Positions 36,197-53,047 of a stretch of 64,000 nt of DNA are shown in pieces. The stretch's first letter is position 1. Each line of letters starts with the position of its first letter. Origin of the DNA: an uncultured Candidatus Saccharibacteria bacterium. Lineage in GTDB: Bacteria > Patescibacteriota > Saccharimonadia > Saccharimonadales > 2-12-FULL-41-12. A program made the position numbers and the translations under genes. The DNA lies in the NCBI GenBank assembly GCA_947085855.1, contig CAMTYB010000001.1, positions 277,788-341,787 of the forward strand, in the 5' to 3' direction. Below the pieces are notes generated by a model that did no database searches, had not been told where the DNA came from, and saw only the letters and a list, made by a program, of their open reading frames with translations.

Positions 36197-36309
36197 CGGC
36201 ACCGTGCTATCTTCCCAGGGCTTATGCCCAAGTATTGTAACCGCTACGAGGCTTAACTGCTGTGTTCGGAATGGGAACAGGTGTTTCCCTCGTGCTATGG
36301 GCACCGATT
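36197..36309 (-). rRNA. rrf: 5S rRNA
   Basis: The reverse complement reads CGGTGCCCATAGCACGAGGGAAACACCTGTTCCCATTCCGAACACAGCAGTTAAGCCTCGTAGCGG...GGGAAGATAGCACGGTGCCG. Confidence 0.9.
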
Positions 36310-36433
36310 ACAGTTTCTCTTGCTGTTTCGCAACAGAAAATCTAATCGGCACCCAAGACGGAGTGTTTTTTCGTTAACAAAATGTAAATAAACGTCTGTT
36401 TTACTAGTGATATGGAGGATTAAAAATCCGACA

Positions 36434-36455
36434 TAATCACCAATAACTAGTCAAA
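36434..36455 (-). other. 23S precursor processing-stem, 3' (trailer) strand
   Basis: A 22-nt segment complementary to 40006-40027, with one G-U pair. It brackets the 23S gene as RNase III processing stems do. Confidence 0.65.
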
Positions 36456-37182
36456 ATGCTTCCACAGACAGTAGTTATAAATAACCACCATCTATGGTCA
36501 TAAAAAGTCAATGAGGCTATTAGTACGCTTAGGCTGAACACATTGCTGTGCGTACACCGTGCGCCTATCAAACTGATCGTCTATCAGTGCCTTCATAGGG
36601 AAATCTAATCTTGAGGTCAGTTTCGCGCTTAATATGCTTTCAGCGCTTATCTGTTCCGCACTTAGCTACCCAACAATGCCATTGGTATGACAATTGGTAC
36701 ACCAGCGGTGCGTTCACCCCGGTCCTCTCGTACTAGGGGCAAATCCTCTCAAATTTCCTGACGTCCACAGCGGATATAAACCGAACTGTCTCACGACGTT
36801 CTGAACCCAGCTCACGTACCTCTTTAACCGGCGAACAGCCGGACCCTTGGGACCTGCTCCAGCCCCAGGATGAGATGAGCCGACATCGAGGTGCCAAACA
36901 GCGCCGTCTATGTGAACTATTGGGCGCTATAAGCCTGTTATCCCTGGCGTAACTTTTATCCGTTTGCGCTGTCGATCCCACGTTCAAATGACCAATGGTC
37001 AATAACAGCGGATCACTTACTCCCACTTTCGTGCCTGCTTGGCTTGTAGGCCTCACAGTCAAGCTGGCTTATGCGTATGCACTATCACTACGATTTCCAT
37101 CCGTAGTTAGCCAACCTTTGAACGCCTCCGCTACTCTTTAGGAGGCAACCGCCCCAGTTAAACTACCCACCAGACACGGTCC

Positions 37183-37303
37183 GGTTACCAGAAGCTATTC
37201 ACGAATCGTCTTTCTCAATTGCCGAGTTGAATCTTCGATTCAAAGGCAATTTCGCAAATACATTCGTTGCATTCACTAGATTCGTGAACAGGTTGTGGTA
37301 ACC
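37183..37303 (-). other. 23S expansion A (about 95 extra nt, domain V, near E. coli positions 2190-2230)
   Basis: Lies between the conserved blocks ACCCACCAGACAC and GGGTGGTATTTCA. It forms a long hairpin GGTTACCAGAAGCTATTCACGAATC/GATTCGTGAACAGGTTGTGGTAACC with an inner AATTGCC..GGCAATT hairpin. Confidence 0.7.
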
Positions 37304-37744
37304 GTAAGAATAAAACTACAACAAGGGTGGTATTTCACTGGTAACTCCACCTAGACTAGCGTCTAAGCTTCAAAGTTTCCCACCTATTCTACACATGTTG
37401 TAGCTCGATTCAATGTCAAGCTGTAGTAAAGCTGCACAGGGTCTTTTCGTCCTGCTGCGGACAGACGGCATCTTTACCGTCAATGCACTTTCACCGAGCT
37501 CTTCGTCGAGACAGTGCCCAAATCATTACTCCATTCGTGCGGGTCAGAACTTACCTGACAAGGAATTTCGCTACCTTAGGACGGTTATAGTTACCGCCGC
37601 CGTTCACCGGGGCTTCAGTTCGCACCGTGAAGCACTCCCCTTAACCTTCCGGCACCGGGCAGGAGTCAGCCCCTATACATCCACTTTCGTGTTAGCAGAG
37701 ACCTGTGTTTTTGGTAAACAGTTGCTTGGGCGCCTTAGCTGCGG

Positions 37745-38036
37745 CCCCGTCACACTATCTACCACGATAATGTGCTTATTAGGGGTCAGCCTTCTATTTG
37801 ATTTGATACAAAGTACCTCGACATTAACTCGTAAATTTAAGATACGAATAGAGATAGTTACAAACTCTAGACGTAAATTTTGTTTCTTGTTCAAAAAGAA
37901 AACTGGCTAATAGTCACATGTGTTCGTGTTATTTGTTACAACGAATTGTTCTAAATAACCTCTGTGTCAGTTTTTCTTTTCAGAAAAACTGGACACTAGC
38001 TTGCAAAGCAAGCTTCGTGATAAACACTGTGACGGG
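37745..38036 (-). other. 23S expansion B (about 235 extra nt, AT-rich, at the helix-63 region, E. coli about 1635-1735)
   Basis: Lies between the conserved AAACAGTTGC and CCCGAAGTTACGG blocks. It is closed by a 10-bp stem CCCCGTCACA/TGTGACGGGG. There is no credible ORF. Confidence 0.7.
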
Positions 38037-39344
38037 GCAGACCTTATCCCGAAGTTACGGTCGCTGTATTGCCGAGTTCCTTGACGAAGAATCACTCGTA
38101 CACCTTGGTCTTCTCGACCTGAGCACCTGTGTCGGTTTGCGGTACGGGTAGCGTTGTCCACACGTTTAGTTGCTTTTCTGGTCAGCACTGTTACCGGAAT
38201 TCGGTCCGTAAGGACCGTCTCATTCGTAGGTATTTCTCCTACTTAGACGGGTATAACCATGAACCCGCTCCGACTAATATGCCGCGCACACTAAACAAAA
38301 CAACACTAGTACGGGAATATTAACCCGTTGTCCATCGCCTACGCTACGCGCCTCGGCTTAGGCCCGACTAACCCTGGGACGATTATCGTGGCCCAGGAAA
38401 CCTTGCTCTTTCGGTGGGCAGGATTCTCACCTGCCTTATGGTTACTCATTCCAACATTCTCACTTGATGACGCTCCACCGAACCTCGCGATTCGACTTCT
38501 ACGCAGACATCAACGCTCCTCTACCACTGCCACAAAAGTGACAATCCATATCTTCGGTAGTATGCTTTAGCCCCGTTACATTTTCCGCGCAAGATCTCTT
38601 GATGAGTGAGCTGTTACGCACTCTTTAAATGAATGGCTGCTTCTAAGCCAACATCCTCATTGTCGAAGAAATCTCACCTCGTTTCCCACTGAGCATACAT
38701 TTTGGGACCTTAGATGATGGTCTGGGCTGTTTCCCTTTCGAGCGCCGACCTTAGCACCGACGTTCTAACTGCCATGATTACACAAATGGTATTCGTAGTT
38801 TATCAAGGGTGGGTACCCTTGCGGGCCCCAGTCCGAAACAGAGCTCTACCCCCACTTGCTACAACATGACGCTAGCCCTAAAGCTATTTCGAGGAGAACC
38901 AGCTATCTCCAGGTTCGATTGGCATTTCACCGCTAACCACAGGTCATCCGGGCGTGTTGCAACGCGCTACGGTTCGGTCCTCCACGTCGTTTTACCGACG
39001 CTTCAACCTGCCCATGGTTAGGTCACCTGGTTTCGGGTCTACTAATATGTACTAAATCGCCCTATTCAGGCTCGCTTTCACTACGCGTCCGTCAGATGAC
39101 TTACGCTTGCACATATCAGTAACTCGTTGGATCGTTCTACAAAAAGCACCCCGTCACCCCGAAGGGCTCCGAGTCCTTGTACGCACATAATTTCAGGTTC
39201 TATTTCACTCCCCTTCCGGGGTTCTTTTAACCTTTCCCTCACGGTACTTGTCCACTATCGATCGTAAGATATATTTAGCCTTAGGAGGTGGTCCTCCTAG
39301 ATTCGGTCAGGGTTTCTCGTGCCCCGACTTACTCGACATGGAAC

Positions 39345-51152: not shown

Positions 51153-51162
51153 ATAAAAATCC

Positions 51163-51183
51163 AAGATAGTGCAAATCAAACGT
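51163..51183 (-). other. 16S precursor processing-stem, 3' (trailer) strand
   Basis: AGATAGTGCAAATCAAACGTC on the plus strand is the near-perfect complement of 52871-52890, with one bulged nt. Confidence 0.7.
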
Positions 51184-51332
51184 CGGTTCGGTTTCTTCGT
51201 GTTACTTGCTTGTCTGATAAATCAGACAGCGGTAAACAACTGTTACACGTTGCAAAAACAGTTGCACCTACAAGATCGACCGTAGCTCTTACGGATTCTA
51301 TAGAGATCCGCAAGGCTTACGTTCTCCCTAGA

Positions 51333-52798
51333 AAGGAGGTAATCCATCCGCAGCTTCCGCTACGGATACCTTGTTACGACTTAACCCCAATCATCTCCCC
51401 TACCTTAGGCCGGAACGAAGTCCAGACGTCAGGTATTGGCGACTTTCATGGTTTGACGGGCGGTGTGTACAAGACCCGGGAACGTATTCACGGTAGTGTG
51501 CTGACCTACCGTTACTAGCGATTCCAGCTTCAAGCAGGCGAGTTTCAGCCTGCTATCCGAACTGAGACCGGCTTTGATGGGATTTGCTCCCCCTCGCGGG
51601 TTGGCTGCCCTTTGTACCGGCCATTGTAGCGTGTTTGTAGCCCCAGGCGTAAGGGCAATACTGACCTGACATCATCCCCTCCTTCCTCCCTGTTACCAGG
51701 GCAGTCTAGCCAGAGAAATCCAACTGACTAAAAGGGTTGCGCTCGTTGATGGACTTAACCAAACATCTCACGACACGAGCTGACGACGGCCATGCAACAC
51801 CTGTCACTGCGCTCAATAAAGCACCCTCATCTTTCGATAAGGTTCGCAGGATGTCAAGCCTGGGTAAGGTTCTTCGCTTATCGTCGAATTAAACAACACG
51901 CTCCACCGCTTGTGCGGGTCCCCGTCAATTCCTTTATGTTTTAAGCTTGCGCTCGTACTCCACAGGCGGGATGCTTAACGCGTTAGCTTCGCTACTAGGA
52001 GGGTCGATACTCCTAACAGCTAGCATCCATAGTTTACGGCGTGGACTACCGGGGTATCTAATCCCGTTTGCTACCCACGCTTTCGTGCCTTAGCGTCAAT
52101 ACTAGACCAGTCACCTGCCTACGCCATCGGTGTTCCTCCTTATATCTACGGATTTCACTCCTACACAAGGAATTCCAGTGACCTCTTCTAGATTCAAGCT
52201 TAGCAGTTTAGGTAATGTTGAAGGGGTTGAGCCCCAGGCTTTCACTACCTACTTACTATGCCGCCTACGCAACTCTTTACGCCCAGTAATTCCGGATAAC
52301 GCTTGGATCCTCCGTATGACCGCGGCTGCTGGCACGGAGTTAGCCGATCCTTATTCATATGCTACCGTCATAATCTTCACATATAAAAGCAGTTTACGAC
52401 CCGAAGGCCTTCATCCTGCACGCGGCGTTGCTCCATCAGGCTTTCGCCCATTGTGGAAAATTCCCTACTGCTGCCTCCCGTAGGAGTCTGGGCCGTGTCT
52501 CAGTCCCAGTCTGGCTGATCATCCTCTCAAACCAGCTAATGATCGTCGCCTTGGTGAGCCATTACCTCACCAACTAGCTAATCATACGCAGGCCGTTCCC
52601 AAACCGCCGAAGCTTTACTCCTTAGAGCACATGCGGTATTAGACACCATTTCTGGTGCTTATCCCTCAGTTTGGGGTACGTTCCTACGCGTTACTCAGCC
52701 GTCCGCCGCTCGTGTACCACCGAAGTGGCCTTACCGCTCGACTTGCATGTATTAGGCACGCCGCCAGCGTTCATCCTGAGCCAGGATCAAACTCTCCA
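51333..52798 (-). rRNA. rrs: 16S rRNA (about 1.47 kb, no insertion), with AU at E. coli positions 911-912
   Basis: Minus-strand 5' end GAGTTTGATCCTGGCTCAGGATGAACGCTGGCGGCG and 3' end GTCGTAACAAGGTATCCGTAGCGGAAGCTGCGGATGGATTACCTCCTT. The 907-926 region reads AAACATAAAGGAATTGACGG. Confidence 0.95.
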
Positions 52799-52870
52799 AA
52801 AAAAGAATTTGCTCTCTTAGCATCAGTATAAAACTGACTTACTAAATTAAAAACAATTCAAAAATGAACT

Positions 52871-52890
52871 GACGTTGATTTGCACTATCT
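52871..52890 (-). other. 16S precursor processing-stem, 5' (leader) strand
   Basis: Complementary to 51163-51183. Confidence 0.7.
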
Positions 52891-53018
52891 CAAATTTTTA
52901 ATGAACTTGACCTGGGGTCAAACAGCGGTCGTATCAAGTGATACGTGCGAATGCCCAGTTAATGTCACGCAAATTTTCTCAAAGACACTTAAAGACAAGC
53001 ACCCGAAAATCTCATAAC

Positions 53019-53047
53019 ATATTATCGTCTATAACACCGGTTGTCAA
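53019..53047 (-). promoter_or_regulatory. Candidate sigma70-type promoter for 16S rRNA
   Basis: On the minus strand, TTGACA-17 nt-TAATAT, about 220 nt upstream of mature 16S. Confidence 0.55.

Follow-up and report, generated by a model that had tools for sequence, protein, structure and literature searches.

Predicted division of a Saccharimonadales ribosomal RNA locus into four transcription units around an inserted pair of giant genes

The ribosomal RNA (rRNA) genes of an uncultured Candidatus Saccharibacteria bacterium were analyzed in a stretch of 64,000 nucleotides (contig CAMTYB010000001.1, positions 277,788 to 341,787), hereafter called the window; all coordinates are those of the window. 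In this locus the 16S gene is separated from 23S and 5S by a pair of tRNA genes and by two giant open reading frames (ORFs), A and B. The following genes were located, in order of transcription of the rRNA strand:

51332-52802, minus strand: 16S rRNA gene, full length (Rfam RF00177, 1500 bits)
50969-51045, plus strand: tRNA-Ile(GAT) (ARAGORN and Rfam)
50872-50948, plus strand: tRNA-Ala(TGC) (ARAGORN and Rfam)
45056-50419, minus strand: ORF A, 1787 amino acids (aa), with an N-terminal hydrophobic segment (ORF call)
40350-45056, minus strand: ORF B, 1568 aa, with an internal duplication (ORF call)
36499-39954, minus strand: 23S rRNA gene, 3456 nt, with expansion segments (Rfam RF02541, 2532 bits)
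36194-36308, minus strand: 5S rRNA gene (Rfam RF00001, 89.8 bits)

The 16S, 23S and 5S genes lie on one strand and in the order of a canonical operon. Such an operon also has a short spacer (less than about 1.5 kb) with co-oriented tRNA genes only, and no terminator between 16S and 23S. Here 11,377 nt lie between the 3′ end of 16S and the 5′ end of 23S, ORFs A and B fill this gap, both tRNA genes are on the strand opposite to 16S and converge on its 3′ end, and two putative terminator hairpins stand between the rRNA genes (51151-51124 on the minus strand and 51058-51083 on the plus strand). The distance exceeds the 1500 bp beyond which Brewer et al. (10.1101/705046) regard 16S and 23S as unlinked. 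The presence of tRNA-Ala(TGC) and tRNA-Ile(GAT) downstream of 16S, and of protein genes between 16S and 23S, is typical of the Saccharibacteria region. No tRNA-Val(TAC) was found as a third spacer tRNA, ARAGORN detecting only two tRNA genes in the whole window, and no second copy of the rRNA locus was seen in these 64 kb.

Promoter scanning, folding and analysis of inverted repeats placed the following predicted signals around these genes:

53019-53047, minus strand: putative 16S promoter, TTGACA-17-TAATAT (promoter scan; positional conservation in relatives)
52894-52921, minus strand: second promoter-like site, TTGACC-16-AAAAAT, weak and not conserved (scan)
52870-52905, minus strand: 16S leader with a boxA-like motif TTCATTAAAAATTT (about 52890-52903) and the 5′ stem arm GATAGTGCAAATCAACGTC (inverted repeat; alignment)
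51149-51186, minus strand: 16S trailer with the 3′ arm of the processing stem (inverted repeat; folding)
51124-51151, minus strand: putative intrinsic terminator of the 16S unit (hairpin and U-run, -17.3 kcal/mol)
51058-51092, plus strand: putative terminator of the tRNA unit (hairpin 51058-51083, -17.7 kcal/mol)
50802-50830, plus strand: putative tRNA promoter, TTGTTA-17-TAGAAT (promoter scan)
50482-50510, minus strand: putative promoter of the A-B operon, TTGACC-17-GATAAT (promoter scan)
50452-50474, minus strand: hairpin GGTTAT-N11-ATAACC in the 5′ untranslated region (5′-UTR) upstream of gene A (-3.9 kcal/mol, weak; conserved in five loci)
40259-40320, minus strand: putative 23S promoter block, consisting of an upstream element CCGTAGTAACTTTGACTACGG (40315-40295) and TTGACC-17-TATGAT with a TG extension (40287-40259) (scan; conservation)
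40006-40027, minus strand: 23S leader, 5′ stem arm, conserved as ACCAATAACTAGTCAAT in relatives (inverted repeat)
36434-36455, minus strand: 23S trailer, 3′ stem arm, in the 23S-5S spacer (inverted repeat)
about 36152-36190, minus strand: putative terminator of the 23S-5S unit (sequence reading; -15.9 kcal/mol, then a U-run)

An initial annotation of this DNA had described a promoter, a stem and a terminator for 16S, a promoter and a terminator for the convergent tRNAs, a TTGACC-17-TATGAT promoter and a stem for a 23S-5S pair 11.4 kb away from 16S, and a separate promoter for two giant genes filling the gap. All of these were recovered in our analysis. We think it probable that this is a Saccharimonadales rRNA locus of four transcription units, in which 16S would be made apart from 23S-5S and into which A-B has been inserted. 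The first unit would comprise the 16S promoter, leader, 16S, trailer and an intrinsic terminator, with a stem of about 30 bp just inside the terminator that would serve as an RNase III substrate. The second would be an inverted module of promoter, tRNA-Ala, tRNA-Ile and terminator, convergent with the 16S unit. The third would be the inserted A-B operon with its own promoter and 5′-UTR hairpin, and the fourth would consist of the 23S promoter, leader, 23S, 5S and a terminator, with a leader/trailer stem of its own.

Relatives were surveyed with a 24-mer from the 16S gene of the window, a TM7 signature. It retrieved at least 120 genome loci (L001-L120), mostly from metagenome-assembled genomes (MAGs) of Saccharibacteria/Saccharimonadales, and a few Chloroflexota and Bacteroidota loci, which served as the outgroup. 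Closer contexts of A-B were found by an exact-sequence look-up of homologues of protein B. The denominators used below are 89 Saccharibacteria loci for the 16S terminator, 55 loci with both tRNAs, 65 loci with enough downstream sequence to be informative, and 12 outgroup loci. The closest 16S genes among the listed matches are 92-95% identical to that of the window and come from Saccharibacteria/Saccharimonadales MAGs, which together with the signature 24-mer places the window in the Saccharibacteria (TM7). The highest identity among them belongs to L034 (95.2%, over a partial 16S match), and the gyrA gene of the window is 81% identical to that of a Saccharimonadales MAG. With 16S identities of only 92-95%, the window has no sampled congener among the species representatives listed.

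The 16S leaders of 19 relatives were aligned. The promoter appears in this alignment as cTTGACA-17-TAnnAT at a conserved position, most clearly in about 17 of them, and a boxA-like motif TTCATTAAAAATT with a stem arm ATAGTGCAAATCAACGTCAG is nearly invariant and aligned in position. The leader of the window has about 110 additional nt (52906-53018) between the promoter and the boxA-like motif, found in none of the 19 aligned relatives; the second promoter-like site (52921-52894) belongs to this insert. The trailer motif is also present in the trailers of L034, L040, L085 and L013. In these four loci a G+C-rich hairpin with a T-run follows directly after the conserved trailer arm, and the stem sequences of these hairpins are mutually unrelated.

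A hairpin of this kind was detected after 16S by a strict finder in 77 of the 89 listed Saccharibacteria loci, at 147-253 nt (median 171), and in none of the 12 outgroup loci. The background of the strict finder is 0.25 per kb per strand, corresponding to 2.9% expected per search window. With a relaxed finder, 84 of the 89 loci had a hairpin 146-281 nt after 16S (7% expected), again with 0/12 in the outgroup. When the 12 loci missed by the strict finder were folded, most of them showed a hairpin with a T-run, among them L078, L090 and L103, three of the five that the relaxed finder had missed as well. Where 23S lies within 1.5 kb, the strict finder sees the hairpin in 8 of 13 loci, and most of the remaining five have one on folding. 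In the window, the 16S, tRNA and 5S hairpins all display the anatomy expected of an intrinsic terminator, a G+C-rich hairpin followed by a U-run; the 16S hairpin has A and T runs on both sides and could work in both directions. In many near relatives (L073, L002, L079, L096, L100, L113 and L076) the loop of the corresponding hairpin has a common motif, TTGCGAGAG. No description of a class-wide 16S terminator was found in the literature searched, and such a terminator may be undescribed.

In relatives the 23S promoter block has the upstream element followed by TTGACC or TTTACA and, after a 17-nt spacer that includes CTCTGTT, by TATnAT. Its conservation does not depend on the gene that lies upstream, be it B (L121, L129), the lipase gene of L130, or a tRNA gene as in L076, L114, L078, L090, L073 and L038. 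A promoter-like site was present no more than 450 nt upstream of 23S in 31 of 33 Saccharibacteria loci, compared with 4/33 in the reverse-complement control and 0/7 in the outgroup. The two leaders of the window share a boxA-like motif, TTCATTAAAAATTT for 16S (52890-52903) and AACTTAAAAATTT for 23S (about 40098-40110), and the motif is conserved in the leaders of relatives; a strict pattern recognises it in 13 of the 33 23S leaders. Both versions resemble CTCTTTAACAATTT, which we take to be the boxA consensus of E. coli.

The window, L121 and L129 share, with 100% conservation, an island of about 60 nt that contains the putative tRNA promoter; the sequence on either side of it has diverged. 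Inspection by eye found promoter-like elements at the matching place in L040 (TTGTTA-17-TAAAAT) and L085 (TTGTAG-17-TAAAAT); in both of these loci one two-way hairpin appears to serve the 16S unit as well as the tRNA unit. Upstream of same-strand tRNAs, a promoter match of at least 10.5/12 was obtained in 16 of 38 listed loci, compared with 1 of 38 in the reverse-complement control, and in many of those loci the -10 element ends about 20 nt before the first tRNA.

It had been argued that a simple inversion of a spacer could not give the order Ala-then-Ile seen in the window. The relatives contradict this. The 55 listed loci with both tRNAs include 32 with same-strand Ala-Ile, 15 with same-strand Ile-Ala, 7 with the tRNAs on the opposite strand and one mixed. 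Five of the seven opposite-strand loci (L040, L042, L085, L094 and L110) are transcribed Ala-then-Ile as in the window, and this order is that of the majority (37/55). In L034 the arrangement is 16S-Ala-Ile-gene A with the tRNAs on the same strand as 16S, and inversion of that module produces the layout of the window exactly. Judged by its layout, the tRNA module of the window is a simple inversion of the predicted promoter-Ala-Ile module seen in L034. Inverted repeats flanking the module, which might have caused the inversion, were sought and none was found. Among the listed loci with both tRNA-Ala and tRNA-Ile, tRNA-Val occurs only at 16S identities of 86% or lower.

A plan of three modules, namely putative 16S, tRNA and 23S-5S units, is on this evidence a property of the class and not of the window alone. 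For Saccharibacteria in general, including genomes that count as operonic by distance, the view that the region consists of three consecutive transcription units and not of an operon seems to us evenly balanced between acceptance and rejection. We are equally divided over the particulars, in which 16S would end at a terminator about 170 nt downstream, and the tRNA cluster and 23S-5S would each be transcribed from conserved promoters of their own. The literature searched contained no description of a three-unit rRNA organization in Saccharibacteria. As to the course of events, the class-wide three-module plan would have uncoupled transcription first, and this prior uncoupling would have made the inversion of the tRNA module and the insertion of A-B harmless in the lineage of the window.

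The initial annotation had based the independence of the units partly on leader/trailer stems. These provide no argument, because canonical operons also have leader/trailer stems; the position-conserved promoter-like elements and the putative 16S terminator do argue for independence. The longest inverted repeat bracketing 16S pairs 51149-51179 with 52875-52905 (31 nt, 84% complementary), and that bracketing 23S pairs 36434-36455 with 40006-40027 (22 nt, 95%). The predicted duplexes enclosing the two genes are conserved in relatives, with variation too low for covariation. When whole leaders were paired with whole trailers by RNAduplex, shuffled AU-rich sequences gave equally low energies.

Several points weigh against the division into four units. 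Every promoter and terminator was read from the sequence. Promoter-like hexamer pairs are no more frequent in the region than expected by chance (24 found, 22.9 expected), and therefore the promoter motifs carry weight only through their conservation in relatives. The survey covers species whose 16S carries one exact 24-mer and, among these, the matches listed. Some compact relatives (L078, L090) were missed by the automatic finder, and their hairpins are branched. There is no terminator between B and 23S, the hairpin at 40315-40295 being without a U-run, and because none follows gene B, transcripts of A-B may read into 23S. Finally, antitermination complexes could read through the 16S hairpin to some degree, given the boxA-like motifs in both leaders.

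The locus might accordingly be viewed as still one operon, in which the transcript from the 16S promoter runs to 5S and the 16S hairpin is a processing or stability element, or a leaky attenuator that boxA/Nus antitermination overrides. The rRNA genes and A-B do lie on one strand with the rRNA genes in canonical order, which together with the boxA-like leader motifs and the lack of a terminator between B and 23S fits a single transcript. However, nothing in the anatomy of an intrinsic terminator appears to be missing from the 16S hairpin, which is conserved across the class and absent from the outgroup operons. In a single operon the tRNAs would be transcribed antisense. The tRNAs, gene A and 23S are each preceded by an apparently independent promoter that is conserved. 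Moreover, 10 kb of the 11.4-kb gap is coding, and the stoichiometry of the rRNAs would hang on reading through an mRNA. We regard a single operon as unlikely.

With respect to the inserted genes, the stop codon of A overlaps the start codon of B (TAATG), and A-B is by this reading a translationally coupled pair. L121 and L129 have the putative promoter of gene A and the 5′-UTR hairpin with 100% conservation, and both can be made out in L034 and L040. A hydrophobic segment is present at the N-terminus of both proteins. Searches of Pfam and NCBIfam gave no family above threshold for either of them. In the PDB sequence search, protein A weakly matched 8oml, a 'cell wall surface anchor family protein' (E 5.5e-7), and protein B returned nothing. 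Protein B has a weak match to delta-60 repeats and an internal duplication of about 360 aa (aa 69-422 against 1010-1368, 50% identical). A 'surface protein' label for A and B is plausible and unproven. The B family extends across the Candidate Phyla Radiation (CPR; 172 matches); Paceibacteria, Falkowbacteria, Nomurabacteria and Berkelbacteria have homologues that are 37-47% identical over about half the length of B. In all relatives examined, a large ORF directly adjoins B on its upstream side.

Between the tRNA and gene A promoters there are two imperfect palindromes, TTGTNNTA-N5-TANNACAA, at 50578-50598 and 50667-50687, 89 nt apart. The islands that hold them are conserved in L121 and L129, and the palindromes may form an operator of the A-B operon. 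A DnaA-box-like motif, TTTTCCACA, is located at 50708-50716 upstream of gene A; it is conserved in L121, L129, L040 and L034, is perfect (TTATCCACA) in the last two, and may be a regulatory site. A replication origin upstream of gene A was considered and rejected, as DnaA boxes do not cluster in the window (13 matches, 13.7 expected) and its GC skew does not switch.

Homologues of A are found immediately after 16S and the tRNAs in L034, where the gene is full-length, and in L040 (16S 93% identical), where 16S is followed by inverted Ile and Ala and then by the A homologue. Inverted tRNA-Ala, A, B and 23S follow one another in L121 (B 94% identical) and L129 (B 74%). In L130 (B 74%) a lipase gene stands between B and 23S, and L122 (B 72%) starts in inverted tRNA-Ala and contains extra genes. 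Altogether the insertion is present in the window and L133, an assembly discussed below, and in L121, L129, L130, L122, L034 and L040, gene A being what is seen in the last two. Upstream of 16S the window has gyrB-gyrA, and gyrB and gyrA occupy this place in 32 and 52 listed Saccharibacteria loci, respectively. Downstream of 5S come a gene for a ROK-kinase-like protein, one for an S1-domain protein, and infB; L114, a compact 16S-Ile-Ala-23S-5S locus, has the first two of these after its own 5S. Both flanks are ancestral, and therefore A-B would have been inserted between the tRNAs and 23S of an otherwise intact locus.

The opposite course, a translocation of 23S-5S to a site downstream of a pre-existing A-B operon, has some precedent. 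In the distant Saccharibacteria L123, L124 and L132 (B 56% identical) A-B lies elsewhere, flanked by tRNA-Pro/Gly and tRNA-Arg/His, and there is another clade whose 23S-5S no longer lies at the 16S locus. A search of metagenome contigs with protein B returned only three distant loci, without rRNA context. Nevertheless, the window keeps gyrB-gyrA on one side and the kinase-like gene, the S1-domain gene and infB on the other, with the first two of these also found after 5S in L114, and all of the tRNA-Pro, Gly, Arg and His neighbours of the distant A-B loci are absent from it. Such a translocation is in our opinion quite improbable.

Assemblies classically break or misjoin at rRNA and tRNA genes, and every one of the related short-read contigs stops within tRNA-Ala or 23S; yet a chimera of 16S, giant-gene and 23S-5S loci misjoined at conserved rRNA/tRNA sequence is hardly credible, as the independent Logan assembly L133 (ERR4904396) is 100% identical to the window from 50908 to 38635, diverged relatives obtained from other samples have the same junctions (L121, L129 and L130, and L040 for 16S-tRNA-A), and both flanks fit class-wide synteny. 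The 12.3 kb shared with L133 run from inverted tRNA-Ala through both giant genes and the putative 23S promoter and reach 1.3 kb into 23S. The assembly is sound, and the insertion of A-B into a locus of four predicted units remains the preferred reading.

The combination of inverted tRNAs and giant genes in the gap had been considered unusual. In the 65 informative listed loci, 23S starts less than 1.5 kb from 16S in 13 and at 1.5-8 kb in 20, and in the remaining 32 no 23S appears within at least 2.5 kb; in 52 of 65 loci, then, 23S is either missing or lies beyond 1.5 kb. The tRNAs are on the opposite strand in 7 of 55 loci, and a variable tRNA order as well as protein genes in the gap have already been published for oral Saccharibacteria (PMC7651992). 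The claim of rarity is refuted for this clade. The initial annotation had allowed that the architecture would be ordinary if it proved to be the norm in close relatives, and this is largely the case; the exception is the A-B insertion, absent from L076, L114, L078, L090 and L073 at 91-92.5% 16S identity. Only the identity of the inserted gene pair is distinctive for this lineage. The expectation that the locus would provide a useful evolutionary marker was borne out for A-B: recurring in at least five diverged assemblies, the insertion is a real marker of a sub-family clade.

The gaps after 16S in relatives hold varied protein genes, many with signal peptides, and cassettes of secreted-protein genes seem to be a favoured cargo at this place. 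A set of opposite-strand genes for secreted proteins of about 195 aa, 660-720 aa and 167-207 aa recurs after 16S in L100 (+1077 to +5169), L096 (+3254 to +6775) and L086 (+707 to +4016). A clade formed by L075, L103, L118, L081, L004, L005, L082 and L065 (16S 83-88% identical to that of the window; L004 and L075 bear Nanosyncoccus titles) has no 23S at the locus. There, genes for the kinase-like and S1-domain proteins, tRNA-Asn and infB directly follow 16S and the tRNAs, and therefore 23S-5S has moved from the ancestral locus in that clade.

According to Murugkar et al. 2020 (PMC7651992), this region in oral Saccharibacteria usually holds tRNA-Ala, -Ile and -Val, whose order varies, together with one to five protein genes of varying orientation. 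The window resembles it in having tRNA-Ala(TGC) and tRNA-Ile(GAT) after 16S and protein genes between 16S and 23S, and differs from it in the absence of tRNA-Val and of the gene for a 79-aa protein, in the inversion of the tRNA pair and in the two giant ORFs (10 kb). That paper calls the region an operon; terminators and internal promoters are not described there. Unlinked rRNA genes in CPR were reported by Brewer et al. (10.1101/705046) and Lui et al. 2021 (PMC8172020). The present locus shares with them a 16S-23S distance of more than 1.5-2 kb with intervening genes, coherence within a clade and association with small genomes; unlike them, its 16S and 23S keep their neighbourhood, strand and order. 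Lui et al. scored two Saccharimonadia genomes as operonic (PMC8172020), whereas in our survey only 13 of 65 informative listed loci have 23S at less than 1.5 kb, most of them with a putative 16S terminator.

Compared with the rrn operons of the E. coli type (P1/P2), the window has the same gene order and strand, a stem for each rRNA, boxA-like motifs, a strong predicted 16S promoter and a putative 5S terminator. It differs in the predicted terminator after 16S, the inverted tRNAs, the 10 kb of protein genes and the apparently separate tRNA and 23S promoters. In E. coli rrn, a promoter inside 16S drives the spacer tRNA and supplements co-transcription (Takada et al. 2016, PMC5179076). Expression of spacer tRNA from its own promoter, uncoupled from rRNA synthesis, would be common to both systems; here, in contrast, the putative tRNA promoter comes after a terminator and, in the window, lies on the opposite strand. 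The locus is one more variant of the broken-up rRNA regions of Saccharibacteria/CPR and is by itself modest.

Some further features of the region were noted. The 23S gene contains expansion segments of about 88, 260 and 100 nt at 39424-39337, 38020-37749 and 37292-37193 when compared with a Chloroflexota 23S, and these are partly extra also with respect to other Saccharibacteria. The two larger segments are flanked by inverted repeats (37744-37767 with 38015-38038, and 37182-37207 with 37279-37304). Rfam and an ORF scan revealed no ORF, no group I/II intron and no homing-endonuclease signal in these insertions. A weak c-di-GMP-II riboswitch hit within 23S, scoring 23 bits (E 0.14) where the gathering score is 53.5, was taken as chance. 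Just downstream of the putative 5S terminator, a small ORF at 35770-35966 on the minus strand encodes a Gly/Lys-rich peptide, MAGTKDGGKAAAATNKKKYGSDFYARIGAAGGAKGRTGGFYANRELARIAGRKGGQISRRSKKTA, which may resemble the 'KGG' repeats of stress proteins.

For this lineage the A-B insertion, usually accompanied by the inverted tRNA-Ala/Ile module, is a clean synteny marker of a sub-family clade, and methods that rely on amplicons spanning 16S-ITS-23S (ITS, internal transcribed spacer) will fail. If the motifs are functional, the synthesis of 16S and 23S would not be coupled by co-transcription even where the genes are adjacent. If true, this bears on how the balance of ribosome components is kept in episymbionts with tiny genomes, and counts of linked and unlinked rRNA genes based on distance would understate functional unlinking. 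An ancestral uncoupling of this kind would also explain the inversion and reordering of the spacer, the uptake of secreted-protein cassettes and the loss of 23S-5S from the locus within the Saccharibacteria.

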